Shown here: in pieces, positions 16,880-42,618 of the stretch | Layout: each line of letters begins with the position of its first letter | Position numbering within the stretch: the stretch's first letter is position 1 | Origin: Schmidtea polychroa | Lineage: Eukaryota | Reading direction: 5' to 3' | DNA: 64,000 bases | NCBI GenBank assembly: GCA_044892525.1 | Contig: CM097887.1 | Coordinates: forward strand, 80,826,397 to 80,890,396 | Program-made: the position numbers and the translations under genes | The notes under the pieces: generated by a model | The model's input: only the letters and a program-made list of their open reading frames with translations | Told to the model about the DNA's origin: nothing | The model's database searches: none

Positions 16880-17435
16880 AACGACTAACCAGATGCAGTG
16901 ACGTATATGCGCACTAAATTGATAAAAGACCTTTGAATACGAACATATGTACTTTTAAGTGTGAAGTAACTTTAATGTTTAATTTTAGTCTCAGGATAAA
17001 TAAAAATTTTTTTTGTTATGAATTAGATATTTTATCTCTTTTAATTACATCTTTGTTTATGAGATCGAATGGAGAAGAATAAAACTAACGTGGAATTAGT
17101 CCCAATATAGGATATAAGAGTACAAACCGAGCCACCTTCGGGCGGTACGTTCTATCATAAGACAAACCAATTGGGAGGGGATAACTGATCAACCCAAGTA
17201 AGAAGCGTAGGGCGGGGTACCATCGCAAATGATGAGAAGTTTCTACGACATGACTGATCACCATGCCAATGTAGAAATGGATCATCGCGATCGTCGTGCG
17301 TTTTGAGCAAGGGGGGAAAGGGGAAACACTCTCAAGCGGTAAAGATTAAGTCGACAAATTAAAAGTAGACAGAGAAAATGGTAATCTTGAGTAAAAGAGG
17401 AAAAGAGAAGCAGAAGCATGCAAAGTGAGGAATAT

Positions 17436-22107: not shown

Positions 22108-22146
22108 ACAAGAGACGTAACGTATCAAAAAGAAATACGAGACCGG

Positions 22147-23523
22147 ATGAAAACGTTATATCAAAAATCTACAGAAATAATTGAAATTCACCAACAATGG
22201 TTAAAAGAAAAGGAACTACAAGGAAAAATCACGAAACTAAGTACCAGATCCTGCAGACGAACCCCATGGGAAAGAGAGTGGAATACAGAAAATAAGGAAT
22301 GGGAAATCCGGAAAGGAATCTTCGTAGAAACAGACATTGGTGAGACAGAAAGTGAATCGGAGGAAGGAGAAGAGGAACCTCCAGAATATGAAGAGGAAGC
22401 AAGGGGACAGACATCAGATGACGAGAGCGAGACGGATGTCACATCGGAAAGCGAAAATGAAGCGAGACATATTCATGCAATGAGGAAAAAGGAACGTGAA
22501 TATGCCGATATGGACGGCGAGGAAGCGATAGAAGCAAGAGAACGAGAAGAGAAGGAAAGATATAAACAGTTAGGCGATATCTTAGCAATGGGAGCGAAAA
22601 ATCAAAAACGCCAAGTAATAGCATTGGCTAACATCATCCTAAAGACATCAGAGAATATCCACAATCTGAGAGAAATGGCGAAAACAATAGAGGAATACCG
22701 GAATATAATGAATGGTATCCAGAACAGCTAGAACAAATTACTCGAAAATGGAGAAATCAGGAATGAGCACAAGACACCCAGGAGAGGTATCACATCCGAA
22801 TCAAGTATCCGGACAAGAGCATCGAAGAACTAGAGGTGCATCCAACAACAAAGGTTAGAGAATTAAAAAAAGAAATTAGCATATGAAACTCCATTCCATC
22901 TGCAACTATTCGGAAAATCACTAGACGATAATGCAGACGTCGGAATAACACCCATGAGATTGGAAGAGACGAATGTGTTAACAATGGCGGAAACGTTGGG
23001 AAAACCGTTGAAAAGGAAAAGCAAAAATAATAAACCAACTAAAGGCAGTTTGAGTACTCCAAGTCCGAACAAAGCACCAAGTAAATCTAATGAAACCGAA
23101 GAAGTTGAAGAGATAATCCTGGAAGATAGCGACGATGAACCAGGAGAAAGATCACCGCTATTAGTGAGATGGCCGACAGGAGCCGAAATGTGGACTAACA
23201 ACCAACCATCAACAAGTTATCAACAACCAACAAAATTGAACATCGAAGAAATCATCGACAATACTACGGAAACCGAAACGGATGAACAATTCAAGAAGCA
23301 AAGAGAACCAACAAGAATAACACCAGAAGGGCAAACTGATAAAATAATAGATGAATGGAATGAGTGGCTGAGAAATAACGATAGCTCATTACCCAGAACG
23401 AATAACGAAAGAAATCCGAATTACGAAAATACCAGAGAAGCCGGAGCGATGATGGAAAACGGGCAAAAGGAAGACCTAAGAAACAAGGAGAAAAGTCTGA
23501 GTTCAAAACCAAGGAACAATTAA
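22147..23523 (+). pseudogene. Disrupted polyprotein segment: acidic region, a third ubiquitin-like domain (22785-22985, frameshifted in an A7 run) and a low-complexity linker
   Basis: 22147 is in frame with the previous ORF. Removing one A at ~22870 gives YHIRIKYPDKSIEELEVHPTTKVRELKKKLAYETPFHLQLFGKSLDDNADVGITPMRLEETNVLTM, which is ubiquitin-like. Confidence 0.6.
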
Positions 23524-23546
23524 AGCAAGAACAAGGGGAAGTTCGA

Positions 23547-26500
23547 TTGGAAAAGTTAGATAAAATAGTATGGGATCTAAAAGAAGCTCAACCAACGATC
23601 GAAAGAGGAGAAAAATGGATACGAGAATTGATCAAAGATATGTTAATAATAACAAACCCACAACTTAGACGTTTGTGGCAACGGAAAGTAGCGAGTGTGG
23701 AAGCTAGACAATTATGGCACATCGTATCAAGGATAATCCCAAAGTTAATCAAAGAGAAAACGAAAACCACCAAAACGGATTGGGATGAAACAAAGAGAGT
23801 GATTGAACAGCTCACGACAAATGCAAATGATGACGAACATCATCTAGTGGTAATCACTTATTTGATGTATAATTTGATGGGATTAGCTGCAAGGAAAATA
23901 CCTAATAAACAGTTCGCAAATCACGTAGAAATGACAGTGTCAGTCATAGAAAACACTATTGAACCACATATTATCCGTGCCGGAGGATGGAAAAGACTTA
24001 TACAAGCGCCACGAAAAAACGAACAGGAAAGGTCAATGCAAGTTAGATTGAAGAAGTTGCTGAACGAGCTTGAATGGGAATTACCAATGAAAGATCCAGC
24101 CAGTAGAAAAGCGTCAATAAATTCGTTAATGATGACTATGATGATATGGATGTTGTGCACAAGTGGGGCAACGAGTTTTACCATCTACGATTGTGATAAT
24201 ATGATAATGAGAGATAAATACTCATTGAGAGATATAGAAGAATGCAGACAAGCATCACCCAACAAATTGGACATAGTAAAAACAAAAGTTACCTACCATG
24301 TATATCAAGAATCAGATTTCATCAGAACGCAAGCAAGAGAATGCGTTGTATCAAAAAAGGTACTCGCGTATTATTGCGGGCAATATTCGTATTCAACTCT
24401 CATACTACCCGGTCTAGATAAAGAAATCGTATCAATACAAAGAGAGGACTGTAAAGAGCTATTTAGAACCGGAGCGCTAAAAATGCATAACGGAGTGACG
24501 ATACACGGACAAACCGGAATGATAAAAACCGAAAGTGTTTATGTATCCGGAAAGGTGAAATCATCAGATGGGTCATGTAACGGAGGTACGTATACAATCC
24601 GAGGGGAGGTAATATCGGGAGTAGTAGTGATCGAGTCCTATACGGTTGAATTAAAAGAATACGAAGCGCAATTTGACGCAAATAATTACCAAATGAAAAC
24701 CAACCCGGCATGTAGGGCTACAGAAAACGTATGCAAGACAGGAGTATCAACTATAATCTATGAAGCTAACACGCAAAAATGCCGACTCCAATTGTTAAAA
24801 AGTGCTTTGTTTAATGAAGTAAAAGGGGAAATTTATGAGAACGAAAATGACGAGGATGGAAACGAAAGAGTGAGAATGCGAAATGGAAAACCAATGCCAC
24901 CATCTCCCAGAGAAAAAAGACTCTCAACGCAGAAAACACCAACAACACTAATCACCGACGATCCAGATCTAGGTATGAGATTTATCAAAGAGAAAGAAAC
25001 CACCAAATGCGACAGTATAGTATATAAAACCAATTACGCGGGTATCTATATGTCGAGACAAATAATCGATAGAGCAGTGGGAAAGATAGCAACGGAGGAC
25101 GTAAAACTATACTTATATGCAAATAATAAAATGGACTTTCTGTTTCATCGCGGACAGACGACGTTGCAAAAAGTATATTACGATCTTATACAAAACGATT
25201 GTTCGTTGAATAAAGAAATACTGAAAACAAAGCTGGCTATTGCGATAACGCACCCAGATAACACGATGCCATCACTCCCATTACCTGATGGACATTTTGG
25301 TAGAATGGTGGGAGAAGTGATGTACACATACCAGTGTACCAAGACGTATGCACGAATGCCCGAAAAATCCTCACTACCCGAAAAGAAATGTGCAAACGAA
25401 TTAGAGATTCGTTATAAAGGACAAAATCGATTCGTCCAACCAGTCACCAGAATTACGAACCCAGTAGGCTTCTACCCAAATCTATTTAACTGTTCTAATG
25501 CGTACGGACCATTGTATGAAAGACCCGATGGGAAATGGATAATGTTACCAGTAAAAACCATAACAGAGGAGCCCAAGAAATTTGGATTAATAGAACTCGC
25601 CACGGAACAAGTCTTCAAACCCATTGACGTATCAAACGGGGGTATGTATGCCCCAGAAGATTTAGAAATAGCTCGGCTTAACGTATTATTCCCCGCAAGG
25701 CGAGAATCTATATTGTCAAACATGGTCACAATAACTGGGGGAACGAATTACCAATCAGGCCCAAACTATGAACTACTGCTGTCACCAGACCATTTCCAAC
25801 AAGCAACCTCAAATATGATGAAAGCAATGTGGGGAAGATTCTTAGTTTTTGGACAAATGATGGCCGGAATATTGGGGATCATACTCATAATTCAGATAGT
25901 CAGAGTAATACTAACACAAATGTTAGCTTGTTTTGATATATACAAGAGAGAAAAGAAAGTAAATTGGAAAATGATAGTAGGATTTCTACCATTCCTAGCT
26001 AAAACCATGGTTTTACATGGTCACTCAAAAGACATTCATCGGATTAAGCGATTGATCAAAATACTAACAAAGATTAAAGGAACCGACGAGGAAGTAGGCA
26101 GACGATTCCGGAAAGTAATGTACGATGAAGCAACAAGACGACAACTGAAAAAGAATAAGCCAAAATTTTTGGACCGATTCAGAAGTCAATCATCTAACAG
26201 CGATAGTGACGACGATGATAACGGGAACGATAAATGTCTATATCCAAACAGAAACCCAAACGAAAAACCAATGGAAACAGCACCATATTGGGAAAAGGAA
26301 AAGACAAACACCTGGATCGCCAATGGAAGCTATATACCACCGGATATCGTGGGACCACAAGCAGCTTTGACCATGACACAAAATATGTATCCGCAATTAC
26401 CGAGTCAACCCGGTATGCATTATATGCCAACGCGACGTACCAAAAGCGTAGATCAAGCAGATGACGTACGAACAATAGCAGCAATGAATTCACCTGGAGG

Positions 26501-26993
26501 TCCAGCAGTGACAGTCATGATTCAAATCAATGGTAAAGAAACCAATGCTATGATAGACACAGGAGCTAATGTATCAGCGATAGCGATTAATCAAATTCCC
26601 AGTAAGCACTGGAAAGATATCGAATCAACCACAATCCACATCATAGCATGTAGTAAAGAAACAGTGGACGTGGTCGGAAGATGGTGGACTACATTGAGAT
26701 ACCAGGACAACGAAATTGAAACGTATTTGGCAGTAATACCAAAACTTAGCGTACCATGCATAATCGGAACGGATTTGATCCCAGAATTATTAAAAGAAGT
26801 GGTAATTGACTTAACAACCATGTGCCTAAAAGACAGAACAGGCAGAATATGCAAAATGAATGCCATAATCAGATGTCCAGAGAAAATTGTAGTACCAGCA
26901 AAATCGCAGATGATTTGTCAAATAAAAGTGGATACGGGTATGGAAGGAGAAGTTATCTTTGAGCCAAGCAAATCATTCGAAAAGCGACGATAG
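23547..26993 (+). CDS. env: Polyprotein segment: Bcl-2-like domain, internal signal peptide, chuvirus/gB-type envelope glycoprotein with TM, then aspartic protease
   Basis: BH2-like IEPHIIRAGGWKRL; hydrophobic LMMTMMIWMLCTSGATS; FTIYDC..YSLRDIEEC..C..YYCG Cys pattern; TM FLVFGQMMAGILGIILIIQIV; protease MIDTGANVSAI..CIIGTD. Confidence 0.8.
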   Translation: MEKLDKIVWDLKEAQPTIERGEKWIRELIKDMLIITNPQLRRLWQRKVASVEARQLWHIVSRIIPKLIKEKTKTTKTDWDETKRVIEQLTTNANDDEHHLVVITYLMYNLMGLAARKIPNKQFANHVEMTVSVIENTIEPHIIRAGGWKRLIQAPRKNEQERSMQVRLKKLLNELEWELPMKDPASRKASINSLMMTMMIWMLCTSGATSFTIYDCDNMIMRDKYSLRDIEECRQASPNKLDIVKTKVTYHVYQESDFIRTQARECVVSKKVLAYYCGQYSYSTLILPGLDKEIVSIQREDCKELFRTGALKMHNGVTIHGQTGMIKTESVYVSGKVKSSDGSCNGGTYTIRGEVISGVVVIESYTVELKEYEAQFDANNYQMKTNPACRATENVCKTGVSTIIYEANTQKCRLQLLKSALFNEVKGEIYENENDEDGNERVRMRNGKPMPPSPREKRLSTQKTPTTLITDDPDLGMRFIKEKETTKCDSIVYKTNYAGIYMSRQIIDRAVGKIATEDVKLYLYANNKMDFLFHRGQTTLQKVYYDLIQNDCSLNKEILKTKLAIAITHPDNTMPSLPLPDGHFGRMVGEVMYTYQCTKTYARMPEKSSLPEKKCANELEIRYKGQNRFVQPVTRITNPVGFYPNLFNCSNAYGPLYERPDGKWIMLPVKTITEEPKKFGLIELATEQVFKPIDVSNGGMYAPEDLEIARLNVLFPARRESILSNMVTITGGTNYQSGPNYELLLSPDHFQQATSNMMKAMWGRFLVFGQMMAGILGIILIIQIVRVILTQMLACFDIYKREKKVNWKMIVGFLPFLAKTMVLHGHSKDIHRIKRLIKILTKIKGTDEEVGRRFRKVMYDEATRRQLKKNKPKFLDRFRSQSSNSDSDDDDNGNDKCLYPNRNPNEKPMETAPYWEKEKTNTWIANGSYIPPDIVGPQAALTMTQNMYPQLPSQPGMHYMPTRRTKSVDQADDVRTIAAMNSPGGPAVTVMIQINGKETNAMIDTGANVSAIAINQIPSKHWKDIESTTIHIIACSKETVDVVGRWWTTLRYQDNEIETYLAVIPKLSVPCIIGTDLIPELLKEVVIDLTTMCLKDRTGRICKMNAIIRCPEKIVVPAKSQMICQIKVDTGMEGEVIFEPSKSFEKRR

Positions 26994-29900
26994 TTACCCC
27001 TCGCCAGAGAAATAATAACAATAAACCCAGAAGGAGTGATACCGATCAACATCACAAATTTTGAAGAGGAAGACAAAATCATCTACGAAAATGAAAGATT
27101 GGGAAAATTAACTCCAATGATCAATATCGAATTACCAAAAGTGACCAACGAGATGACCAAAGACGACGAATTATGGACAATCGACAGTACATTGTTAACG
27201 GATGCTGAAAGGAGAAAATTGCACCGATTATTAGTAGAATATAAAGATATATTCGCCATCTCAGATTTAGATTTGGGTACATGCGATCAGTGCTCGAAGT
27301 GGAACAAATTATGTGCCGGGATAGGCATGCTGTGGCACCCGGGATTCCAGGCTTTTATGCAGAAATTTTCAGTTGGGGGTGTTGCAAAACTTTGGGGGGT
27401 GTCCAACAATTTGGGGGGGGGGGTGTCCACTCATTTAATCATAAGTTTCAGGGGGTGTACCTGTTTTAATGTGGGGGGTGTCAAACAATTTTGGGGGGTG
27501 GGTAAATCCCTGCGGGATTCTCATTTTTAACCAAGCAAAATGACAGAGATTTTTTGCATGTGTAAATTTGTCTGATAAATAATCGGGGTCACAGTATAAA
27601 TAACTCAACAAACAACTTGCTGGTTTAACTAAAATAAATAAGAGAATATACCTACCTATCCATTACTGCTGCTTGGGAAATTCTTAATTGAATAGAGAAT
27701 AGAGAATAAAGAATATATATATACATACATATATGGATGTACTATGTGTGACCTTAATTGCAGTATTTGTGTGCCTATAAAATGAAATAAGTACCGGGAA
27801 ATATGAAATGAAGTGCCGGGATGCAATTCCGCCTACATAATCAATGCCGGGATAATATCCCGGCTATCCCGCCTCACTTCGAGCACTGCATGCGATGTTA
27901 CCCTACATGCAATACCACTCATAGACGAAACCCCAATTGCATTGAGACCATACAAGCTAGCAGAAATGCAAAAAGAAATAGCCGAAGCAGAAGTACAAAA
28001 AATGTTAGACGCAAAAGTGATCGAACCAAGTTGCTCACCTTGGCAATTCCCAGTGGTCATGGTGAAAAAGAAAGATGGCACCCAACGATTCTGTATCGAT
28101 TATCGAAAGTTAAACGCAGTAACCAAGAGAGATACCTATCCATTGCCGGACATCAATGAAATGTTACTCATGTTGCAAGGGGCAGCATATTTTACTTCTT
28201 TAGATTTAAAAAGTGGATACTGGCAGATTAAAGTCAAAGATGAGGACAAAGAGAAAACAGCTTTCACGTTGGGACGAGATCTATATCAGTTCAGAAAAAT
28301 GCCATTCGGACTGACCAACGCACCAGCATCATTTCAAAGGTGTATGAACTTTGTCACTCATGGAATCAAACAATGTATGGTATATATTGATGATTTGTTA
28401 ATCTATTCAGCGACATTCGAACAACATCTGGAGGATATCCGAAATGTATTTATTCGATTAAGACAATGGAAACTCAAGCTCAAACCCTCAAAATGCGATT
28501 GGGCAAAGGAAAAAGTCACGTTTTTGGGACACATAGTGTCAGCTAAAGGAAAGGAGCCAGATCCAAGAAACATTGAGAAAATAAAAACATGTCCAGCACC
28601 GAAAACTGTCACCCAAGTTCAGGAATTTCTAGGATTATGCGGATACTATCGCAAATTTATCAAAGATTATGCAGGAATTGCAAAACCAATCCAGGAATTA
28701 GTAAAGAAGGATATTTCGTTCATTTGGGGGAAGGAACAACAAGAGGCGTTTGAAACGCTGAGAGACAAACTAATCGAAGCACCTATCCTCGTACACCCAG
28801 ATTTCAAGAAGCCATTTCTATTGGCAACGGATGCAAGCGGGTACGCGGCAGGCGCGATTCTGGGACAATTAGACGATGAAGGAAAAGAGAGAGTAATCGG
28901 GTATTACAGTCGAACATTCAAAAAGCACGAGAAGAACTATTCGGTAACAGAACGAGAAGCATTGGCTATAATACAAGCTATCAAACACTTCCGATATTTA
29001 CTATGGGGACATGAGATATGTATAACCACAGATCACCAACCATTAATGTGGTTAGGGCAACATAAAGAAGCGTCCAGTAGACTGATGAGATGGGCCATGC
29101 AATTGCAAGAATACTCCCCATTTTTAAAATTCAAAGCGGGAAGAGCAAATGCCAACGCCGATTGTATGTCAAGATTTATTTTTCCAGATTTGGTGGATTC
29201 AGAAATGCAACGCATATGCTTAATAGTAGCGGAAGATTTAGATTTCTGTCAATTGCGAAAGGACCAACAAGAGGACGCAGAATTAAAACAAATTATCGAT
29301 TATGTAAAAACCGGAAAGACGGAGGTATATGCGAAAGATCAAAAATTAAAAGAACATATGGATAAACACCGACACCGATATATTATAGAGAAAGATTGGT
29401 TGCTGATAATGGATGGGGAAAAACGATTAATGTGTATACCGGAAAACCGACGAAAAGAGTTACTAACGCAATATCACGATGGGAGATTGGGAGGACATAT
29501 GTCATCAAAAAAAGACGTTAGCAAGAATGAAACAGAAATATTTTTGGCCAACCCTAACGGAAGACGTAACCGAATGGGTGAAAAACTGCCTAACCTGTGC
29601 AACAAGGAAAAACGCTGGATCGAAATGGAAAGCACCTTTGACGCCAATGCCGGTACCAATAGAGCCGATGACAATGATATCAATGGACATAGTTGGTTAT
29701 TACCGGAATCGGATCGAGGAAACGTTTATATTTTAGTGATTACAGACTTTCTCACGAAATTTCCAGAAGCATTCGCGATGCCAGACCAAAAAGCTAAAAC
29801 AATCGCAAAAATCTTAGTCGAAGAGATATGTTGCCGTTACGGGACACCGAAGCAAATCTTGACTGATCAAGGAACTAATTTCATGAGTGAGATAATGAGC

Positions 29901-30236
29901 GAAGTAACAAACTATTTCAAAATCGCAAAACTAAGAACATCTCCATATCACCCTCAAACCAATGGGATGACGGAAAGATTTAATGGAACACTTATACAAA
30001 TGTTATCAAACTACGTCGATCGTCACCAACGAGATTGGGATGAATACATAAATCTATGTCTTATGGCTTACAGAATGTCAATTCATGCATCAACGAAAAT
30101 GAGCCCATTTAAATTAATGTACGGGAGAGAGTGCAACTTGCCAATGGACCTGGAATACCAACCACCGATATCGCAATACATGGAGATAGATGATTATGTT
30201 TCGAAATTCAAAGAAAGAATGCAGGAGATTTGGTAA
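26994..30236 (+). pseudogene. pol: pol (RT, RNase H, integrase core), in frame with the protease across a TAG; disrupted by a MITE and two compensating frameshifts
   Basis: RFCIDYRKLN, LDLKSGYWQI, MPFGLTNAP, YIDD; TDASG, EREALA, TDHQPL; integrase TDQGTNF, YHPQTNGMTERFN. MITE removal gives DLGTCDVTLHAIPL in frame. The zinc-finger CxxC sits in the alternative frame (29479-29736). Confidence 0.97.
27288..27888. mobile_element. 601-bp hAT-type MITE inserted in pol
   Basis: Perfect 14-bp TIR CAGTGCTCGAAGTG. 8-bp TSD CATGCGAT (27280-27287, 27889-27896). Subterminal GCCGGGAT repeats. Confidence 0.95.
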
Positions 30237-33200
30237 ACTGCGGGATTAAATATCAAGTTCTACCAAGAAAGTTATAAAGATTTACACGATCGAAAGAAAA
30301 ACGTGAAGCAACATACGTTTCAAACAGGCGATTGGGTGATGATCGAGACCCCAGAATTAATTCCCGGAACCACAAGAAAGTTACAACGGAACGGAAAAGG
30401 GCCATATGAGATCGTGTTCGTAGGCGAAACCAATGTAAGAGTGAAATTGGTAAATAATCCATTCACCAGGCCAATATACGTAAACGTGGCACGATGCAAA
30501 TCAATTCCAAAAACAGCCACCAGTCAACCAGAAGGCCGTACATTAACCACACGTTCGCAAACCTACAGAATGAACATGATGCAACAACTCGCAGAACCTA
30601 TCACTGGACGATTGGGCATACAACCATCGGAAGCTGAAAAAATCGTACGAGAGGTAAAGATAAAATTACCCGGATGGGCAAAAGATCGATTAGATTTCGA
30701 AATATTAGGAGGATTATTGACGATGATCGAAAACTATGCAAACAGAGAGAGGACACATCCGTTATTGCGAGTAGTTAAAAGTCAATGGCCAATATTATTT
30801 ACAATAACAGATCATTATGGAGACACACCATTACACAAACTCATGAAAGTAGGTAACAACGAGCAAATACTAGAAACAATAGAAGCATTTCACGACTGCA
30901 AGCGATCAACAGAACAAGAAAACAACCAAGGCTACACACCATTAATGATAGCAGCAAACAGAGGCAAAATAAAAGACATTATAACCGCATTACTTGATAC
31001 TGGATCAAAAATAACTACACAAGATCACGAGCGGAAAAACGCACTACATCATGCTATCGAAGGGAAAAGTACCGAGGCGTTCACGTCGTTGATGGAACTA
31101 CTATCATATGAGGACAATCAAGAAGTCGGAAACATGTATGATGGATTATTAACAGCGATCAAAGAGAAACTGACAACAATTACCGGAGTATTAATCACTT
31201 GGAGAAACCCAATTAAAAATAATTATATGATCAACGTAAACGAAGCATTCACGAGAGGAGAGAACACGCTTATGAGAGAAGCTATGAAAGGACATCATTT
31301 ATTCGAAATCCCGAATCAATTACTAGAACGAGGAATAACATTCACAAATCATAAGGATGAGCAGTTATTAAAAAAGCGAATTGACACATTCGAAAAATCA
31401 ATATTCCAATTCATTACTCAGGTACGAAATAAATATTGGGAAACGGTAAGTGTGTTATACATGATGGACACGATGAACAACATCCGCGAGAATTACCTAG
31501 ATATTATTCAAATACTTACCGCAGAGGAACGAATCAATAATCCAACCGGAAAGAAAATGAAAATAAGGCATGGGAAATCAAGAGAACCAAAGTCGCAAAC
31601 GAACCAAACGATCGCAAATAAAGTCATCGAAACAAATTCAATGAGTGTAGATCAAAGAGCAATAATATGCAAAGCGAAAGAAGTGTTCTTTGAGGAAATG
31701 CTAGAGCTCTCAGATGAAATAATAAAAACCGTGCATACATATGCAAGAGATCAAACAACGAATTTGGACATCGGTAAAATCAAAACCTTCTTGCCCCCAG
31801 CATTTACGATGGTAACGAAGGATTCCAGAACACCACTACAACAGGCAATATTAGCAGCGAAAGAAAATAGAGCAATAACGATCATGAGAATCCTTAGGGA
31901 TATGGGCGAGGAAACCAACACGAAAAATGAACAAGGCGAAACCGCCATGATGTATGCAGCTATAACGAAAATACACCCAAAAACACTCCACATACTACAT
32001 CAATCAGGATCGAGACTAGACGAAAAGTCAAACGAAGGGAACTCCACTATGGACTGGGCAACCATACAGCCTAATTTAGAAATGATCAGATTTATTTGCA
32101 AAAATGCGACAAGAGAAGAAGTTGAAAATATATGCAAAAACACAGCTCAATTTCAATGGAATACGGTACGGAAAAATCTAGAAGCAATGAAATTATTATT
32201 AACATGGAGAGTACCACAAAATAATAAATATGCGATAAATGTAAACGAATTCTACGAAAACGGAGAAAACGCGATGGTAAAGAATACATTAACTAAAGGG
32301 GGGACACCAAAAATTATTTTAATAGTACTAAACAGAGAAGACCTCAAATTCACGCAAAATCAGAACGAGCAACAACGAATTGGGAAACATCGTCGTATTC
32401 AAATGAGAGAATTAGTCAAAGAATGGAATAGAAAGAGACATGCTGCGACGGGTAGAAAAGAGTTTGAATTCGAAGCAAAGTTAGCAAGGAACAGAGTGTT
32501 AACAGCATATCGCAGATTATTGAACGATATAAATGTCGAGGACGACATTTTAAACGACAGCGGGGGAGATAAACACGATGACAATGACGGAAAAGGCCGA
32601 AAAGAGGATAAAGGGAAAAGAGAACCGGAAGAGGATAAACCGGAAAACAAGGATTCGGGTACGAGAAGAGAGGGAAACAGCCCGGGAACCAAGACCAAAG
32701 AGGAGGAAAAACCGAATAATGGAAAACAGAGGGTATGCCTACCTTTCACTAACAAAGAAATAGAAACAAATATGATCTTAATGATAATCATGCTAACCAT
32801 GATAGAGTTAGTAACAGCTCATGGAGGGACGAGAACGATAAAAGAAACCAAAGAAGCGGAGAATCAAGATAGCAAAGAGGAAGAACTAAAACAAGAAAAG
32901 AAAAAGCAAGCACAAGAGCAGCAGTGGGATTTAAAGGAAGAATGGGGCCTAAAGGAAAGGTGCATACTAGGAAGATGTATGTCTAGAGCGTATCAGAGAT
33001 TAGTACTGATAAATGAGGACACAGAACCGATAACAGAAGTAAGAATACAAGAAGCATACCGAAATCGAGACGGCAAGAGAATAACGAACGTTAAAGGAAA
33101 AGAGGTGCACCTAGGAAAAGGAGGTGAAGTAGTAATAACGCAGCTCCAACCAAGAAAAGAACACAAAGTCTGTATTTCAAGATTAGGACCAGGTGAGAGA

Positions 33201-33773
33201 TGCCATCAATATGTTACGCAGCAGCAGCCCCCGAAAGAATACACGGTTTGTATCTGGAGGAACGAATCAAAAAGGGAATGCCGACGATACCCGGGGAAAA
33301 GAGGAAAGAAAAGAAAAAACCACGACGAAAAGGACGAAGGAGGAAAGCACAAGAAAACCGGCGAGGAAGCTCAGGACAACTATGTTTCGGAGGAAGAGAT
33401 GGAAAAAATACAAAAGATGGCAAAGGAGGGTATGAACGAGGAAATAACAAGAATACGAGAGAGGATGAAAGGAAATGGCAAAAGAGGAAACGAGAAAAGT
33501 ACAGAAGCGATATCAACATTAACAAACAAGGAAAAACCAGAGAGTATAAGCGTGAAGCAGATGATGTGGATCAGCGGGATAATAATAACAGGGGCATTCC
33601 TAATCATAACGGGGGGAACAATAAAAATAATTAAATATAAACGACATCGCGGAGAACTAGAGATGACCCGAATCAGAAATTTCCAACATCGAGTGAAACG
33701 ACCAAGTGATATCAAACAAGAACAGTGGGTGGAGGCCTGGAACGCTCAGCGCCCTCCAAACTCACGTATATAG
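30237..33773 (+). CDS. Integrase C-terminus (GPY motif) fused to two ankyrin-repeat blocks and a predicted type I membrane protein
   Basis: In frame with pol across a TAA. GDWV..KGPYEI; ANK motifs GDTPLH, GYTPLMIAA, KNALHHA, GETAMMYAA; hydrophobic MILMIIMLTMIELVTA; TM WISGIIITGAFLIITGG. Confidence 0.85.
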   Translation, partial: TAGLNIKFYQESYKDLHDRKKNVKQHTFQTGDWVMIETPELIPGTTRKLQRNGKGPYEIVFVGETNVRVKLVNNPFTRPIYVNVARCKSIPKTATSQPEGRTLTTRSQTYRMNMMQQLAEPITGRLGIQPSEAEKIVREVKIKLPGWAKDRLDFEILGGLLTMIENYANRERTHPLLRVVKSQWPILFTITDHYGDTPLHKLMKVGNNEQILETIEAFHDCKRSTEQENNQGYTPLMIAANRGKIKDIITALLDTGSKITTQDHERKNALHHAIEGKSTEAFTSLMELLSYEDNQEVGNMYDGLLTAIKEKLTTITGVLITWRNPIKNNYMINVNEAFTRGENTLMREAMKGHHLFEIPNQLLERGITFTNHKDEQLLKKRIDTFEKSIFQFITQVRNKYWETVSVLYMMDTMNNIRENYLDIIQILTAEERINNPTGKKMKIRHGKSREPKSQTNQTIANKVIETNSMSVDQRAIICKAKEVFFEEMLELSDEIIKTVHTYARDQTTNLDIGKIKTFLPPAFTMVTKDSRTPLQQAILAAKENRAITIMRILRDMGEETNTKNEQGETAMMYAAITKIHPKTLHILHQSGSRLDEKSNEGNSTMDWATIQPNLEMIRFICKNATREEVENICKNTAQFQWNTVRKNLEAMKLLLTWRVPQNNKYAINVNEFYENGENAMVKNTLTKGGTPKIILIVLNREDLKFTQNQNEQQRIGKHRRIQMRELVKEWNRKRHAATGRKEFEFEAKLARNRVLTAYRRLLNDINVEDDILNDSGGDKHDDNDGKGRKEDKGKREPEEDKPENKDSGTRREGNSPGTKTKEEEKPNNGKQRVCLPFTNKEIETNMILMIIMLTMIELVTAHGGTRTIKETKEAENQDSKEEELKQEKKKQAQEQQWDLKEEWGLKERCILGRCMSRAYQRLVLINEDTEPITEVRIQEAYRNRDGKRITNVKGKEVHLGKGGEVVITQLQPRKEHKVCISRLGPGERCHQYVTQQQPPKEYTVCIWRNESKRECRRYPGKRGKKRKNHDEKDEGGKHKKTGEEAQDNYVSEEEMEKIQKMAKEGMNEEITRIRERMKGNGKRGNEKSTEAISTLTNKEKPESISVKQMMWISGIIITGAFLIITGGTIKIIKYKRHRGELEMTRIRNFQHRVKRPSDIKQEQWVEAWNAQRPPNSRI

Positions 33774-33933
33774 AAAGGAATATGACTGTATATAATTGTA
33801 AAAAGTAAGTATATCTTATGTATATAACAGTACTATATCTTTATATAAGCGCGGTATCAATATTATACAATAACGGGAATCATAAAATAAAATTAAATTT
33901 AGATAAGAGTTGAAAAGTGTATATAAATTAAGA

Positions 33934-34293
33934 ATGGAGCAAGGAAATAACGAAATGAACCACAACACAGTAACCGAAGAATTATGGAAGCAACAATGTG
34001 CCGTATTAGCACAATTAGTGTCTAATTTGCAAGAACAAGGATTGACGATGCAGAAGAACCTAATCGAGAGTATGAACAGATGATTTAGTTATTTAAAAAT
34101 AATCGAAGACCAGAGGTTAAAAATCGAACAAATGCAAAGAGAAATGGAGAGGATAACCCAATATAGCCGAAGACAGGAAATTGAATTGGACAGAATGATG
34201 GAGGAAGCAGAACAGACAGAAATAGAAGACTGGTCAGAATGGCTAATGAGTAGAGAGGAGGGCGGACACGAAGCCGACTCTTCCAAACCATAA
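33934..34293 (+). pseudogene. Short coiled-coil ORF (119 codons) with an internal TGA
   Basis: ATG at 33934, single TGA at 34081, frame continues in the same E/Q/R-rich helical style. Absent from the supplied ORF track. Confidence 0.55.
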
Positions 34294-34378
34294 ACCAAAC
34301 CTAGCTTAAAATGTAAATAATTGTAAATAAAATATCGAACCTGTATCGATAAGAACTATATGTATATATAATTATAGA

Positions 34379-35767
34379 ATGGATAAACGACAAAGAGAAG
34401 AGTTCAGAGAGATTGTCGAACAAGTCCGAAAATCTACAACGATCAGAATACACAAACATGTTATGTGCGGAATATGTGAAAAGTTGCTAAAAGAACCCCA
34501 CCAAACCCTATGTGGATGCAGATTATGTAAGGAATGTATCAGTGAAGCAATAAAGAATAGACCACAGTGGTGCCCGGTGTGTAAAGAGACATTAATATCG
34601 AGTTTAGAAGACACTAACGAGGATAAAGCCGCAGTGAAAGACATGTTAAACACCAATCTGGGATGCAAAAATACCCCATGCGAATGGAAAGGAGTAATAT
34701 GGAAAGTAGTGCAACATATGGGAGAATGTATGTACAGAATCGGCCAGTGTGAAAGGTGCCATAAAACCATTCGAGCAAGCGAAGAAAAAGAGCATCAAAG
34801 CCAGTGTGAAGAGAGACTAGAAAGATGTAAACATTGTGGAGAAATAGATACGTGGAAAAATCTCACCAGCAAACATCACAATGTCCAAGAGGAAAAGGTA
34901 TGTGCAGAGTTCAGTGGGGAATGCCCGAACGGATGCGAGGAAGGGAGAATAATAAAAATAGCCCAACACCTAAAGGAATGTGAAAGGAAAAGAATGACAT
35001 GTGTACTCGGTAAATGGGGCTGTCAGAAGCTACTACACCGAGGAGAGTTACCACATCATTTAGTAGAAAATGCTTCAACCCACGCAGAAATGTGGTCGAC
35101 TGCGCTACAAGAAAGTGAAGAGAAAGTAAAACAAATGGAGATAGAGATAACATCGTTGAAAGTGTTAGTCAAAGAACTACTAGAAGAAAGAAAAGCGTTC
35201 GAAGAAGCCCGAGCTAACATAAAGATGCAAATAAATCGTATAGAAATCAGCAATAATCAGGCCAAGGTGCTACATCAAAAGATAACTGAGATAAATCTAA
35301 ATGAAGTAATACCAACAGCACCCTACGTGTGGAAAATAACGGGAGTAAAAGAAAGAATACGAAAAGCCAAAACCGGAGAAGAGACAAAAATAACGAGCCC
35401 CGCATTCCAGTCTTGGAAAAATGGGTACAAAATGAAAATGAAGATATATCCCAACGGGGACGGAACCGGATTAGATACAGACTTTTCGATTTTCTTTCTG
35501 TTATGCAAAGGGGAATACGACGAAATAATAGAATGGCCGTTCCAGGCAAAGATCGATATTGCACTAATGAATGACCGAAGCATCCACGAACAAAGCTTCA
35601 AGACAACGGGAAACCAAATGTGTTACCAGAGACCTACGGAAGAAGAAGGATCAGCAACGGGAGCGCCTACGTTCATCCTACAACAAAAAGTAGAGGATAT
35701 GGCGAGAAATGACACAGTATATATCAAGATGACTGTGAGGAAAGAGGGGAAGGGTAGAACGGAGTAA
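34379..35767 (+). CDS. Intact, intronless TRAF (RING, TRAF zinc fingers, coiled coil, MATH domain)
   Basis: CGIC..CGCRLCKEC..CPVC RING; Cys/His fingers; MATH YVWKI..SPAF..GYKM..IYPNGDG..FSIFF..GEYD..WPF. Confidence 0.95.
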   Translation: MDKRQREEFREIVEQVRKSTTIRIHKHVMCGICEKLLKEPHQTLCGCRLCKECISEAIKNRPQWCPVCKETLISSLEDTNEDKAAVKDMLNTNLGCKNTPCEWKGVIWKVVQHMGECMYRIGQCERCHKTIRASEEKEHQSQCEERLERCKHCGEIDTWKNLTSKHHNVQEEKVCAEFSGECPNGCEEGRIIKIAQHLKECERKRMTCVLGKWGCQKLLHRGELPHHLVENASTHAEMWSTALQESEEKVKQMEIEITSLKVLVKELLEERKAFEEARANIKMQINRIEISNNQAKVLHQKITEINLNEVIPTAPYVWKITGVKERIRKAKTGEETKITSPAFQSWKNGYKMKMKIYPNGDGTGLDTDFSIFFLLCKGEYDEIIEWPFQAKIDIALMNDRSIHEQSFKTTGNQMCYQRPTEEEGSATGAPTFILQQKVEDMARNDTVYIKMTVRKEGKGRTE

Positions 35768-35923
35768 CCCATCGAATAATGTTGTATATACTAATCTGTA
35801 TATATCGGTGTATATATCCAATAACATATTATATAATAATAGTATGAAAAACCCTAAATACGAAAACCCAAAAATGATGCGAAAATTTCCGAAAAAACAG
35901 TAACTAATGAATAAAAATTTTCC

Positions 35924-37015
35924 ATGATAAAAAGATTAATAGATATCTATGATTTAGAAATGACACAAGAGAAAATAACCGAAACTACGATAGCCCCAAC
36001 CAATATCAACAAGACACAAATTCCCCGAGAATATAACGAAAAATGGAACAAAGTAATGTTCCAACTAACTAATCTCACCCGAAATCACATCGAAGAAGCT
36101 AGAGAGGATGAGAACAGTAAATATCAATGGCTAATACACAATTTAAGAGAGGAAGCAGAAGCATGTAAAAGAGCATCAAAATGGGCGTCATTAGAAAATA
36201 CCCGCCAAGAAGCACACAGCCACTACTTGAAACAGCTAGTGCAGGAAGCTAGAAAGAGACTCACCGATGAGAACACCAAGCGCGAAGCGGAAAAGCAAAT
36301 AGAAGCGAGGAAAATGATGCACTTAGTGGCAGAAGCGAGAAAATGGAAAAGGCAAAACAGTGAAATGAAAAAAGAAATGAAAGAATTGCCCATGAGACTC
36401 GGATATGAAAGTGAACAGGGCAAATGGGAGGAGAATTTAATAATAAAAGAAGAATTGAAACGGTTGAGAAAGCTCGCCGCCGGTAGCCAAACATGGCAAA
36501 CAAAAGCCATGGAATTTGAGCGACATTTGGCAATAAAATGCGACATAAGAGAGCACGAGAACGCCGCAATGGAAGAGATGATAACCCAACAAGCAGGACG
36601 GGTTGTAGAATTAGTGAATCAGGTCGTAGAGATGAAAAGAGACCTTAATGGATTACAAGGATCGCTGGAACAAAGAAACATGGTCCTAGCTGGAAAAAAT
36701 AAAAAATTAGAAAACGAGAGGAAAATGTATACCGAAAATATTAAAAACTTAGAAATAGAAATTGAAAAATGGAAGGGCGACGAGAAAATCAAGGCCCTAG
36801 ACAGACAAATAGAGGTGAAAGACGAAGAGACAAGGTATCTCACCTATCTGCTCGACGAAGAGCTGAACATCACTCGAGCTCTAAGAGACGAAATTAATGA
36901 GTTGAGAGCCCAAATTCCCCAATATTACATACCATATGACCCTATTGCTATCCAGCTACAGGCATCGGTCGAAAGCGATGAGGGATACGTGGGCCAGGAG
37001 GAAACCTTCGTATAA
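35924..37015 (+). CDS. Coiled-coil protein of unknown function (363 aa)
   Basis: Long intact ATG ORF with E/K/R heptad character and the same A-rich codon style as the element. Confidence 0.7.
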   Translation: MIKRLIDIYDLEMTQEKITETTIAPTNINKTQIPREYNEKWNKVMFQLTNLTRNHIEEAREDENSKYQWLIHNLREEAEACKRASKWASLENTRQEAHSHYLKQLVQEARKRLTDENTKREAEKQIEARKMMHLVAEARKWKRQNSEMKKEMKELPMRLGYESEQGKWEENLIIKEELKRLRKLAAGSQTWQTKAMEFERHLAIKCDIREHENAAMEEMITQQAGRVVELVNQVVEMKRDLNGLQGSLEQRNMVLAGKNKKLENERKMYTENIKNLEIEIEKWKGDEKIKALDRQIEVKDEETRYLTYLLDEELNITRALRDEINELRAQIPQYYIPYDPIAIQLQASVESDEGYVGQEETFV

Positions 37016-37127
37016 GGTGATTAAAAAGATAAAAAACTAAAAATCGGGACGTTTACCCAAACAAAAAAATTAAAGTATTGTAAAAGTATTCAAGGGACTG
37101 TAACCCAAACTATTAAATTTTATATAA

Positions 37128-37898
37128 ATGTATATGTATAAGTCGCACTATAGCGCACCATTAACTGTACATATTATAGATATGAAAATCGAGGAAATAA
37201 TAGAAATTATGAGCGACGTAGAAGAGGGAGAGATTGAGGCAGAAACAACAGAAACACAAACGTTAAAGGCCGAGTTACGGGAAGAGAAGTACGAAAACGA
37301 GAGACTAGTAAACAAATATATAGAAGACCGAAAAATGATTAAAATACTAAAGAAGGAGTGCGAAGTGCTAGGAGAAATAAAGAGAGAAGCCGAAGAGAAG
37401 AATGAATGGCTGCAAGAACAACGAAAACGAGGAAGAAATTGGGAAAAGATTGCAGAGGAACTATGGCAAGAGAGGGCAAGCTTCAAGGCAGAAGAAGTAA
37501 TCCAGGATTATTGGAAAACAGAGGCGAAAGAACGCCAAATAACTATAAATAAATTAAATCGACAATTGGAGGAAAAACAACGAGAAAATGAGGAAATGAA
37601 GAAATGGATTCGCAAATACCAAGAGATCGAGAGAAAACAACAACAACAACAACAACAACGAAACCTTTCGCAGGAAAACGAACAAGATTTCCTACAAATC
37701 GAACTAAAAAGGAATCTCGATAAAAAACGGGAAGAAATTAGAAGATTGAAAAAGGAGATAAGGCACATGAAAAGGGAGGCCCGCGAAAAGAACAGACAGT
37801 TGGAAATGCTGCCCGAGTTAAGACACATAGTCATTAAAGCGGAATCCACCCTGATGAGGGTCGCCGAAAATAATCCCAAAGGAGAACCGCTTAACTAA
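37128..37898 (+). CDS. Coiled-coil protein of unknown function (256 aa, polyQ)
   Basis: Long intact ORF, E/K-rich helical, with a CAA repeat. Confidence 0.65.
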   Translation: MYMYKSHYSAPLTVHIIDMKIEEIIEIMSDVEEGEIEAETTETQTLKAELREEKYENERLVNKYIEDRKMIKILKKECEVLGEIKREAEEKNEWLQEQRKRGRNWEKIAEELWQERASFKAEEVIQDYWKTEAKERQITINKLNRQLEEKQRENEEMKKWIRKYQEIERKQQQQQQQRNLSQENEQDFLQIELKRNLDKKREEIRRLKKEIRHMKREAREKNRQLEMLPELRHIVIKAESTLMRVAENNPKGEPLN

Positions 37899-37936
37899 AC
37901 ACCACTAAGACCAATTGTAAATATAATGAATAATAA

Positions 37937-38596
37937 ATGTATAATAGTACAATGCAACGCGGAGTGGCGATAATCATAATAGTAGTGATGCATCTGATGG
38001 AAAGCCAACAAACCAATACCCAACCGAAAATTGTACGAGATTTCCGAAATCCGAACCAAAAATCCATACAAGAGTCCTGTCAATGCTCATACCCCAATGC
38101 AATAAAAGCCAACATCATCCAAAATCTCCAATCAGTCCAATCATATGTCAACAACATCAGAATGATATGTAAAAAGAACCCCATGTGTAAAATATTAGAT
38201 AAACGAATACTCGAACAAATCCAACAATTCGACCAATTGAAGCAACAAGTGCACCAAGAAGATCTTGGAAATCTCGCAGGAAGTACAAAAACACCTCCCG
38301 AAATCAATGACACCCATTATCTCATATATGTGGTGATCGCAGAGACCCTCCTCCTATGTCTACCAATACTCATGAAAATTTACGAAGTTAGAAATAGATG
38401 TAGAATCTCGACATCAATAAGAGTAACCTCGAACCAAAATCCTCAAGAAGTGCCCCTGACAAATCTTAACCCAACCCCATTCCGACCTTGAATCCCGAGT
38501 AACCAACCAATCCAGCCGAATGCTAACAGTCAGACCTATCTCAACATCAATACCCAAACCAACCAACAGCCGCCAGCAGAAGCAGCAAATGGTTAA
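37937..38596 (+). CDS. Small predicted type I membrane protein (signal peptide, Cys-containing ectodomain, TM); probable premature TGA at 38489
   Basis: GVAIIIIVVMHLMES signal-like segment; TM YLIYVVIAETLLLCLPILM; the frame stays open for 34 codons after the TGA. Confidence 0.6.
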
Positions 38597-38827
38597 CAGT
38601 TCATAAACTCTAACTCAAACATTTGTGTTATTATATGTGGAAACTTTTATTGTATGTACAAACTATCACCTTAAGTGATACTTGCTTGGTCTTGATTTGA
38701 CCTATATCTTAGAATAAAATTTTTTTTTATTGTAGTATAATTGTTTCGATATATCCTTTTTATGAATGCATGAATTAAGATAACTATGCAATTGCGGGAC
38801 GCAATTTTGATGGGTCCCCGAGTGATT

Positions 38828-41800
38828 TGTTGGGCTGAGCCGAAGGGTAGCTGAGAAATCAGGTTAAACTTAACTAAAGTAAAATAAAAAATAAAATAAA
38901 TAGATTGACGAATAAAATAGAATAGAATATAAGAAAAAGCAATAATTAGAAAATAAGAATTAAAACAAAAAATATAAAAATAAGAACAATTAAAATAGGA
39001 CAATAGAATGACAAAAAATAACGTAAAATGTAGTAGATAATAAGGAAATTAAGGAAAATAAATAAAAACACAATAAAAATAAAGAAAATAGGAAGAAATA
39101 ACTCAAAAACAAGAAAAATAAATTAAATTAATAAAATTAAGCGGTACTCAATTCTGATTGGTCCGCATAAACGAAAAATATCTATATAAGTAAACAGCAA
39201 ACTCACTATAGTCAATGTTAAAACCAAACCAATTACAGGTAAGAAATAGTATTAAGTAATGTAAAATGTTAAAACCAAACCAATTACAGTTACAGGTACT
39301 CGACAATCCAGAAAACCGACCGACACTCAGACGACTATTAGGAACAGTTCTATTGACAATTCATTCATATAACCGATTTGATTAGTGTATATTTCGGCTC
39401 AGCCTTTGGAATCACAGAATTTTTCAAACAATAAGTAAGGATGTATTGCTATTGTAAAATTTGTTTTTTCAAGGATTAAATATTTTATTATATTAACGTA
39501 ACTTTTGAATAAAAACTTCTCCATTCGATCTCAATTTTTTAATGATAATATAGTTCGTAAATTAATTTAAAGGTTAATGATATATGAATGTTTATGATAT
39601 GTTTTGTCGTCGAACGTATTGATTGTGATAAAATTATTTTTGAGAAACGTGGAGTTGAGGAGACCCACGCCATGGTGTGAGGAGCCTTCGGGAGCTCAGC
39701 CGGCGGGTGTGGATCTCTTCAATCACGCAGCTGACGTGGGCCGGAATGTGGGGGTTTCCTCACGGGTCCGTCGCTGAAGGAAGTAAAATGCTGCAAGCAC
39801 GAGTTTAAAGTATAGAGGAATGCATTCAAATATTGAAAAGTAGAGCAATCTTAATTGAAAATGACTGAGGTGGCTACAAATTCTTATTAGACATCACACT
39901 CTGAAATTTCATCTGACATCAGAAATCGTATTCTTGCCTCAACTGACACTCTATCTTCTAGTGGCAAAATACTCTTCTATCAAAACTCACGTCAATAGAG
40001 AAACTGAGTACTAATATGTTCATTAAATGTAAAATCATAATATAGGAAGCATAAACGAAGATTTATTCAACAAAAGTTTTAGTACTAATATATTTTTCAA
40101 CAAACACTTTAATTTTTTCATTTCTCCTGAAAATCCACAATAGCGGCAACATGAAGTTCTTTCTATAAATGACTCTTTCGACCAATATAGGTGGAACTCT
40201 TTTGAATGAGTTGCTGTAAATATTCCACGAAATCACAACATCCAAATTGAAAACCGGAGGAAACTGCACATCATGAGAATAAATTCCAACGTTCATGCTC
40301 GATGAGAACTAATCATAGGTAGCATATTGAATAACTGAAATAAATCCAACTCGCGGTGTGGGACGATCAGCTGCAACCCGTTAACGTAGATAATGAGAGA
40401 GCAGACGAGACAAGTCACACGCATTGCTACACATAAATACACACTTACATATGCCGCATGCATTATTTTCCCAGTCAGCTAATGACGATGAGAACAAAAA
40501 TTGAAGTACACGCACATGACATAATTATCTCCGATCGATATCTAACTTTCAGATTCATGTTGTTAATGAGTTCTACGAGTGAGCTATGCATTACCGGATG
40601 ACTGTTATCAATTAGCTAGATTTCATAGATTAATTGCACCAGTAAATTCCATAACAAAAATGAATAGATCGATTTTCAGGATAGGAATAAAAATCTAATC
40701 ATACTCGAATCCTTAAAAATCTAATGGTAGCACAGTGATTGAATATGTTTTTTCGATTTTCATATACCAATATGAATTACGATTTGAGGTAATTAATTTA
40801 AGGAGCATTCCCGCGGCACTAGAGAACTTTGTTTTTACGTTTTTTAAAGATAAATAACTGTATTCGAAAAGTTATATGTAAAAATGAATATTAATTATTT
40901 AATTATGCAAACATTCTAATGTTTCCTAAACAATTTCTACGAAACCGATAATTCTAACGTTCACTGGGTCAATACATTTGCGAGTCATCTTTCACCTAAA
41001 TATTTGAGAATCTCAGATAACAATAGGTAATGGATATTCTAAGTATAATCATAAACTTTTGGCAAAGTATTAATCAGATGTTAATTTCTCTTGCAACCCC
41101 AAATAGACATCCAAGAATTCACTGAATGCAATTATAAAACACTATTTCTAACGGAACCATATCATTGACCTTTTATCCATTTTACTTAATTTTTCGAAAT
41201 TAATAAATGATCATGTCCCATGCTGGTTTAGTAGAAATCGCTGATCTTAATTCTTATTCTCATTGTTTTTTCTTTGTTACAGTTATCAAAAATGTTGCCA
41301 AGCTCGAGGCCGTCGCTCAAACCCTGTTTCTCCTGTGCCGACAAAAACACCGTAATCCGAGAATTACAGGCCCAGATCGGTCGATATAAAAAGAAGATCG
41401 ACGATCTGGAAGGTACATGGTTTAGCCCAGTACAAATGAAGGAGGTGCAAAAGAAATTGTACCGCAGCGAGCATTGTCGCGATGCTTTGATAAGCGAAAG
41501 TAGAGCTCAGCGTAACCTAATCAAAGAGCAGTCCGAAGCTCTACATAAAGTTTACGTTCAAGCCGCGACAACCCCGAAGATCGTTAGTATCCCGATTAAA
41601 GAAGCGGACAATATCTTCCCCGTCCACCATGAACCTTCATTTAGTTCACCACCCTTATCAAAAAGATCTTGTCGTGAATGCGTGGAGGCCGACCTCTCCC
41701 CCAGGCCAACGGACGTACCTACTCCCGGCACCGGCAAGGTATTGCCATCAACCACGACGTCCTCAGAAATCTTGTCTGCCAACCCTTCGAAACCTAAACG

Positions 41801-42618
41801 TCGCCAATTATCCAGAGCGGAGCGTAAGAAGCGTCAACGCGAACGAGCAATCGTCAAACAACGAGAACTATCTTCCAACCACCCAAGTACTTCGAATGAC
41901 CCCCCCGTAACGATCGATCTAACCGTAGGGATCCCAGGGCGAATAATATCTGCCGCTGGCGTGACTTGGGAGGAGAATGCCTCCGAGGTTTTTGATCTAG
42001 ATGAACTATTGGCGGATGCAGAATGGGAGAAGTGAGAATCGCAACACAATACAACCGTGCAGAGTGTTAATGGACAAATAAACTATCATGACTCCTTTTC
42101 CTCTTAATCCATTTTCCACTAAGTGTACTCGTTATATAGTGCCATAATTATATAGTGTATTATGATAATAGAATAGAGAAATTTGTGGGTTATTTCTTGT
42201 TGTTGTTTTGATTTAAATAGTTGTTGTAAAGGTTTAGAGTAGTGTTCACAAAGTGATCCATAAAGCGAGAGTAAATTTTGAGTCCGAGAGGCAATAGTCA
42301 ATTTTGTGTCAAATTATGGGACAGGGTAGAGAGAGAATCTGATGAGGTAAACAGACGTAAGTCCTTCCATCGGCAGTCAGCAAGGGAAGTCGAGGCCTCA
42401 GTAAGGAGTAGTCCTAAGGTAGGGGCTCACCTGCTTACTGGAGTCTCGCCGGCATAGCACATTTCCAACGTGAAGCAATTCGCGGGTGCTATGTTGGAGA
42501 GTAAGTTGTGCGGGGTCCTGCTCCGGGTTGACACGGCGTATGTAGCGTGATGATATGGGCACGCATCCCCTAGACAAAGATGTAGATTGAGCAGAGTCAA
42601 CCGAGCGCTACCCCAGCA
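38828..42618 (+). repeat. 3' LTR (3,791 bp)
   Basis: Direct repeat of the 5' LTR. Ends CCCAGCA followed by the TSD CTGT. Confidence 0.97.
41207..42035 (+). CDS. 3' LTR copy of the LTR-encoded ORF
   Basis: Identical to 14734-15562 except for one S/N change. Confidence 0.65.

Follow-up and report, generated by a model that had tools for sequence, protein, structure and literature searches.

Giant Ty3/gypsy elements of planarians are known as Burro1/GYPSM1 and Burro-2 to -4 in Schmidtea mediterranea, with a Burro-like element in Dugesia tigrina. In the excerpted account of PMC6431247, these elements exceed 30 kb with their LTRs and encode a single polyprotein of about 4,800-4,900 aa, with a CCHC-knuckle Gag, ubiquitin-like, Bcl-2-like and dUTPase-like stretches, an envelope (a mononegavirus-like fusion protein) in frame between gag and pol, and cargo that includes ankyrin repeats, TRAF/MATH and a BIR domain. 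The motif list given there for Burro/GYPSM1 already contains ankyrin repeats, and the same excerpt does not say that the ankyrin module is duplicated or where it lies, nor does it speak of cleavage sites. A second described group is that of the Platyhelminthes GAG-ENV-POL errantiviruses of HSV/gB type, Smed_errantivirus_1-6 (PMC13524379, in excerpt), in whose main text and the 7 supplements searched the word "ankyrin" is absent.

The window studied here, a stretch of 64,000 nucleotides from Schmidtea polychroa, contains a Gypsy element of the Burro type with gag, env and pol in one frame. Its main features are the following.

12355..42618, + strand: Burro-type giant Ty3/gypsy element, broken copy (30,264 bp; 4-bp target duplication CTGT on both sides)
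12355..16103, + strand: 5' LTR (TG...CA), 3,749 bp
23406..26993, + strand: weak Bcl-2-like stretch, in-frame envelope and aspartic protease (Pfam profiles)
27807..30236, + strand: RT, RNase H and integrase core, with an out-of-frame stretch near 29510-29730, ending in a TAA
34331..35767, + strand: accessory TRAF-like ORF with RING and MATH, separate from the polyprotein (Pfam)
38828..42618, + strand: 3' LTR, 3,791 bp

From 5' to 3', the Pfam profiles gave a Gag with zinc knuckles, a ubiquitin-like domain, the weak Bcl-2 stretch, envelope, protease, RT, RNase H, integrase, ankyrin and the separate RING-MATH ORF. The envelope is a Monjiviricetes fusion glycoprotein (PF24664, E 3e-69) that lies upstream of the protease in the same ORF; the aspartic protease was recognized by an RVP match (E 5e-10), while the Bcl-2 match among the window ORFs was under the cut-off (E 0.021). 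The element also matched the profile PI3K_rbd (E 1e-4), which we take to be a ubiquitin-like fold. A profile scan of two short pieces of the element gave no dUTPase match, and no BIR domain was found in the window ORFs scanned; a BIR is present in locus L028 of a sister family. By comparison with Burro (PMC6431247, in excerpt), the window element shares the length of more than 30 kb with LTRs, the knuckled Gag, the in-frame envelope between gag and pol and both kinds of cargo, with candidate ubiquitin-like and Bcl-2-like stretches, and the single frame of its family, 4,732 aa, stands beside the Burro polyprotein. It differs in that its TRAF is a separate downstream ORF and in the lack of a BIR match in the ORFs scanned, the likeness being judged by layout. 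Gene order and envelope class also agree with those of Smed_errantivirus_1-6 as excerpted from PMC13524379, a comparison made by description.

The window copy is damaged: it carries several stops and changes of frame, and a MITE of 601 bp has inserted into it. Between 18982 and 30236 there are five in-frame stops or ORF ends, besides the frame changes and the MITE, and yet only 7 substitutions in roughly 3,750 bp separate the two LTRs (over 3,792 alignment columns, 7 mismatches and 3 gaps). Since the copy is heavily damaged though its LTRs are nearly identical, copying in trans of an already damaged template, LTR conversion or an assembly error is suggested. The MITE, which we presume to be hAT-like, lies just upstream of the RT at 27288-27888; its terminal inverted repeats are CAGTGCTCGAAGTG, and its target duplication is 8 bp long. 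Other features were observed in and around the element. Both LTRs contain an open frame of 266 aa (14762-15562 and 41235-42035) with no Pfam match. Directly behind the primer-binding site, a small ORF (16355-16804) carries a partial RING finger under the cut-off (E 3e-5), with a tandem array of 74-bp units behind it, at about 17443-18034. Near the 5' end of the element there are fragments of a type B protein-primed DNA polymerase, at 11427-12575 on the minus strand (E 4e-8) and at 7578-8129 on the plus strand (E 0.02); judging by these fragments, a relic of Polinton-like or densovirus-like kind seems to have been the site of its insertion. At 44814-46814, an inverted repeat of 787 bp, partly N, surrounds a Penelope-like GIY-YIG fragment (45500-46135, E 3e-6).

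The region behind the integrase core is read in the window as an ORF of its own, 30237-33773, which holds the GPY motif, a junction peptide RMNMM and both ankyrin clusters. Its features are as follows.

30234..30236, + strand: TAA, present in the window copy only (codon compared in 32 sequences)
30237..30566, + strand: integrase C-terminal part, with GPY at 30399-30407 and a T-R-S-Q-T tail at 30549-30563 (pN/pS 0.03)
30567..30581, + strand: RMNMM, candidate protease site between integrase and ankyrin
30591..31526, + strand: ankyrin module 1 (profile bounds, Pfam; pN/pS 0.07)
31650..32549, + strand: ankyrin module 2, six predicted repeats and a C-terminal helical hairpin (model and profile; pN/pS 0.07)
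32532..32729, + strand: charged variable linker, 20 D/E and 15 K/R of 66 (pN/pS 0.20)
32730..32744, + strand: RVCLP, second and weaker candidate protease site
32772..33773, + strand: polyprotein end, with a signal-peptide-like stretch at 32772-32828, an ectodomain, a transmembrane segment at 33552-33632 and a tail (hydropathy)

The initial annotation had described an integrase C-terminus fused to ankyrin blocks, a claim that would fall if the TAA at 30234 were fixed in the family and the ankyrin ORF separately expressed, or if no ankyrin fold were predicted. Comparison of this codon in 32 sequences (31 loci and the window) gave a stop in the window only: it is a sense codon in the 30 other copies that cover it and uncovered in one. 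One open frame spans the catalytic E motif of the integrase and module 1 in 17 of the 19 closest copies, and the 4,732-aa frame runs over module 1 in 59 of 150 scored copies (from 762 candidates, counted by hand). Since the stop is private and other copies have long frames, the fusion is real at the level of the polyprotein and the window copy is a broken member of its family. The shared frame also rules out the ankyrin part as a separate ORF. Contigs from two RNA runs, both guessed, cover 30 of 30 and 20 of 30 bins, a figure that says nothing about expression.

In this ORF Pfam detected Ank_2 in 4 stretches (E 8e-20). That the two clusters arose by internal duplication, as first proposed, is borne out by the alignment of one half with the other, which reaches 23% identity across 225 aa (E 4e-14), shows a 335-aa period and takes in the N-terminal Y-A...P-x-x-F and the TWR-P...INVNE...GEN stretches; module 1 and module 2 are about 20% identical. 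Each cluster had also been said to be followed by a related segment, and the two segments quoted were found, at 31197 and 32202. The segment is thus present twice, but it is not a domain apart: in an alignment of 27 rows INVNE..GEN lines up with the hairpin of ordinary ankyrin repeats, and it folds as a repeat, so that it belongs to the solenoid as a degenerate ankyrin repeat with a short TWR-P insertion. The idea of a new domain was rejected on these grounds.

Structure prediction, proposed at the outset as a check, gave an ankyrin fold for module 2, in agreement with Pfam. The AlphaFold model (pLDDT 84, pTM 0.79) has six helix pairs in residues 20-225 followed by two long helices, and it was obtained from the 27-row alignment, in which 13 generic ankyrin proteins stand beside 14 element rows and may have favoured the ankyrin outcome; Pfam and the atlas were concordant without those rows. 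A single-sequence fold (pLDDT 35) was set aside. DARPins superpose on residues 19-184 of the model with Z of about 17 and rmsd of 2-2.6. The module is thus predicted to be an ankyrin solenoid with a helical hairpin. Homologue searches (with 21, 344 and 19 matches, and the best 150 of 18,109) returned generic ankyrin proteins only, at about 19-39% identity, and no database protein among the matches listed, the best 150 of 18,109 included, spans a whole module. The search for viral homologues gave 3 loci of giant-virus type or unnamed, and generic ankyrin atlas clusters match as well. Elsewhere in the genome, big clusters of ankyrin matches with a 48-aa period and many internal stops were observed on contigs C4 (about 88.4-92.9 Mb), C1 (about 264.5-264.9 Mb) and C3 (about 8.4-8.5 Mb); these are an expanded, decaying repeat gene family unrelated to the element.

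Both ankyrin modules are under purifying selection. Considering the variants common to at least 2 of the 32 copies, which are 84-98% identical, pN/pS was 0.07 for module 1 and for module 2, against 0.26 for the spacer that separates them and 0.20 for the linker behind; the integrase tail gave 0.03 and the integrase core 0.01. Singleton variants gave a higher value, 0.28 in both modules, as is expected from decay after insertion. These values bear on the reading of the second module, or of both, as a neutral passenger, which could appeal to the window copy being dead, with its several stops, frame changes and MITE; the contrast of the modules with the spacer and a fold conserved at about 20% identity largely refute it, and we give it hardly any credence.

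The genome also holds related families that differ in this region. A sister family, with RT-IN 76% identical to that of the window family, has a single ankyrin module that matches both window modules, and its distance from GPY to NVEDD is 408 aa against 711 in the window family. With 880 candidates and frames of 4,791 aa it is abundant as well, and TRAF and IAP genes are among its cargo. Its module is 22-26% identical to the window modules, closer to module 1 in its N-terminus and to module 2 in its C-terminus, and may be either ancestral or a chimera of the two. Since the three modules are mutually only 20-26% identical, the duplication is old. The linker behind the single module is strongly acidic in the sister locus L027 (32 D/E and 5 K/R of 65), and that of the window is only weakly net acidic. 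A third enveloped family, with a frame of 3,334 aa, is without ankyrin: in the 4 copies checked the integrase runs almost directly into the signal peptide, the ectodomain and the transmembrane segment. Another enveloped element, internally rearranged, was seen at locus L023 (5568-7025, minus strand), where an ORF behind the protease region has DEDDh exonuclease-like motifs by eye and no Pfam match.

The stretch 32772-33773 is a second membrane protein of the polyprotein, with Cys in its ectodomain. A signal-peptide-like stretch and a transmembrane segment lie behind the modules in both ankyrin families, and the counterparts in L027 and in the ankyrin-less L021 have the same layout with no significant similarity to the window protein. 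With a signal peptide and a transmembrane segment behind the modules, the integrase would have to be cut from the C-terminal end somewhere; this separation from the membrane-inserted part would be needed for the integrase to reach the nucleus.

The cut is likely made at RMNMM by the protease of the element itself, to judge from the conservation of the peptide and its likeness to other borders. Among 31 copies that cover the junction, the peptide is RMNMM in 28, KMNMM in 2 and RRNMM in 1; all 14 copies sampled of the sister family have T-R-S-Q-T and then RIFML. A score was built on eight sites at obligatory borders (capsid/nucleocapsid, the nucleocapsid end, both protease ends and RNase H/integrase), none of them behind the integrase. 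RMNMM ranked 9 of 4,596 positions, RIFML 15 of 3,078 and RVCLP 15 of 4,596, ranks to be read in the light of RMNMM having been spotted by eye before testing, of training sites chosen by the analyst, and of NLCLM, inside the folded integrase core, ranking 3, so that false positives in folded domains score equally high. A union pattern found 6 matches outside the training set against 1.3 in shuffles (P 0.0025), while a strict pattern built from the three pol borders alone fails to match RMNMM. Mapped cleavage sites of Ty1, I-N/N-V and I-A/A-V, have a similar shape (PMC6952103, in excerpt). Cleavage at RMNMM, as first envisaged, would be the likelier branch, to judge by the rank of the site and by R/K-MNMM in 30 of 31 copies, with RIFML as the putative match in the sister family.

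RVCLP, just ahead of the signal peptide, is conserved within a variable linker and resembles the RNase H/integrase site RICLI. It is kept in 16 of 17 in-frame copies shown, a count that includes one RICLP and takes L029 and L031, a single locus, as two. Its weak points are that it ends in P and that its counterpart in the sister family sits within a hydrophobic stretch. RIQMR, which follows module 2, was considered as a cleavage site and rejected because its M occurs in the window copy only.

A rival reading concerns the fate of the ankyrin protein. If it is cut from the integrase but not from what follows, it would stay tail-anchored in the ER or plasma membrane through the internal signal sequence and would act as an adaptor for the assembly or trafficking of the element's own particles. 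In both families a signal-peptide-like stretch does come immediately behind the modules, the second site is a weak one, and the ankyrin domain of the planarian nidovirus is predicted in one protein with a transmembrane domain (PMC6211748, in excerpt). Against this, RVCLP is conserved in an otherwise variable linker and looks like RICLI, and there is an abundant enveloped family that replicates with no ankyrin module at all, so we regard membrane anchoring as unlikely, if worth keeping in mind.

The reading that we favour, as probable though well short of sure, is that the ankyrin modules are accessory cargo of the single polyprotein, likely cut from the integrase at RMNMM to give a free host-binding effector and not a tether. 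Both modules would be translated within the polyprotein, the element's protease would cut at RMNMM, exactly at the end of the integrase in both ankyrin families as the border motif suggests, and a second cut at the candidate site before the signal peptide would leave a soluble protein of about 720 aa. Release is the likely fate, given the border-like RMNMM, the RIFML that takes its place in the sister family and the further candidate site ahead of the signal peptide. The released protein may damp stress, immune or death signalling in the particle-making cell, the likeliest job in view of the accompanying TRAF, IAP, Bcl-2-like and ubiquitin-like cargo, and the duplication probably provided another binding surface, diverged from the first.

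The initial annotation had offered, as the other branch, a module standing in for a chromodomain that directs integration. In that case the modules would remain part of the integrase and bind the integration complex to a partner on chromatin. The integrases of chromoviruses have a GPY module at the C-terminus (PMC13524379, in excerpt), as does the window integrase, which in turn is without a chromodomain and has its downstream domain set off by a motif like a protease border. By Pfam, there is no chromodomain match in ORF 30237-33773, in L027 or in L021, L025 and L026. The contrast with a chromodomain is itself a false one, given that chromodomains are confined to some Ty3/gypsy clades and are not the default in this group, a planarian GAG-ENV-POL element being tabulated as "no chromodomain" (PMC13524379, in excerpt). 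What speaks for a tether is the in-frame fusion right behind the GPY module and the ability of ankyrin repeats to read histone marks, EHMT1 being the top Foldseek row by E-value but with TMq 0.46 and rmsd 6.6. On the other side, two families that share only 22-26% identity in their modules have both retained a border-type motif at the junction. Insertion sites, also named at the outset as a check, were compared for 143 of 150 copies, leaving aside 7 that lay on small contigs or were adjacent duplicates, and for 62 of 68 envelope matches that stand for the ankyrin-less family (6 dropped). There was no chromosome-scale clustering against a uniform distribution (KS p 0.10) and no difference from the 62 ankyrin-less copies (p 0.57), in a comparison that is coarse and blind to local targeting. 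The tethering module is thus not supported, and we hold it to be quite improbable.

A basic motif ends the integrase itself: T-R-S-Q-T at 30549-30563 in the window, found twice in the sister locus L027 (about 6400-6460), with R-Y-P-L-R-S in the ankyrin-less L021 (about 4180-4200). Viral anchors to the nucleosome acidic patch carry a hydrophobic residue three before the arginine (PMC9040877, in excerpt), and the T-R-S tail has a like spacing. Because of this resemblance, it could be, as a speculative analogy, that the short tail is the actual chromatin tether or nucleosome anchor, which would be a further point against a tethering role of the ankyrin modules.

Regarding the host target, the effector branch of the initial annotation was that of a viral IkB-like protein. 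IkB proteins have six to seven ankyrin repeats and an acidic C-terminal tail, and the six helix pairs of the module 2 model fall within this number. In IkBa, Bcl-3 and the ankyrin proteins of polydnaviruses and poxviruses, about six repeats are followed by a charged or acidic tail, a layout that the predicted repeats and the charged linker of the window element resemble, and the window modules likewise belong to a virus-like element with cargo of immune and death pathways next to them. The window modules differ from IkB in being a tandem pair, in the long C-terminal helical hairpin between repeats and charged tail, and in showing no specific affinity of sequence or fold. IkB was absent from the best 60 rows of each of three single-sequence PDB searches, and IkB chains were not among the 50 VIA-align matches listed for module 2; Bcl-3 came 51st among 375 in the profile search and 20th in the fold search, with gankyrin and DARPins doing at least as well. 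By analogy, IkB mimicry by the modules is possible.

Among the 50 rows listed, the best viral match by TM-score (0.58, a narrow lead over 0.55) and by identity (21%) was a planarian nidovirus polyprotein, which is only 9th by E-value. The ankyrin domain of this planarian secretory cell nidovirus has been proposed to be an IkB mimic taken from host Rel-ankyrin proteins and, like that of the window element, is carried in a giant single polyprotein near membrane segments (PMC6211748, in excerpt). In the same excerpt it has three divergent repeats and close host Rel-ankyrin relatives, whereas the window modules have six predicted repeats and a hairpin, doubled, and no close host relative of theirs was found.

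In the planarian Schmidtea no clear NF-kB homologs have been identified (PMC13563047, in excerpt). In the present genome, the profile RHD_DNA_bind gave no match, an uninformative result since the controls were also unmatched, and RHD_dimer gave one Rel-homology gene. From its motifs, we take this gene to be NFAT5-like. It lies on contig C4 at 30.73-30.77 Mb (loci L046-L050), and 20-28 kb downstream the same strand has weak ankyrin exons; the module profile does not match these exons, which are short, and no paralog of an exon of the gene was found in the genome. A scan for Rel motifs gave 3 matches against 2 in the control, the best one without ankyrin exons in the 40 kb downstream. A Rel-homology factor is our lead guess for the ankyrin partner, and a tentative one. 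A broader proposal would have the retroelement and the nidovirus share one lineage of IkB-mimicking ankyrin, here doubled, excised by two protease cuts and joined by captured TRAF and Bcl-2-like genes, as an immune-evasion kit in the style of large DNA viruses directed against the divergent Rel factors of the flatworm; this we consider rather improbable.

The released protein might instead act against the silencing of transposons, for instance as a mimic of some ankyrin factor in the piRNA pathway. Ankyrin proteins do act in piRNA biogenesis (Asz1), and the hundreds of young copies (762 candidates, a full frame in 59 of 150 scored) may imply an escape from silencing. No match, however, names such a protein and the other cargo points to the TRAF, IAP and Bcl-2 pathways, so that we see very little room for this explanation.

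To our knowledge, ankyrin has figured among the listed cargo of Burro elements since 2007, with no mechanism attached to it. The presence of this cargo is already published, and as a discovery the present finding is modest. A literature search beyond the primary Burro sources (Jurka 2007, Grohme 2018) returned no report of the duplication, of the one-module sister family or of the flanking sites; the figures or supplements of those two sources may already show the position or the duplication of the ankyrin repeats. The anatomy described here leads to claims about the end of the integrase, about the release by a protease of a host-directed effector and about the planarian pathway that a very successful element would need to block, and the high-copy families with two modules, one module and none in a single genome are a natural comparison for them. 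If the partner were a Rel factor, it would point to the planarian immune transcription factor, not so far identified by homology searches.
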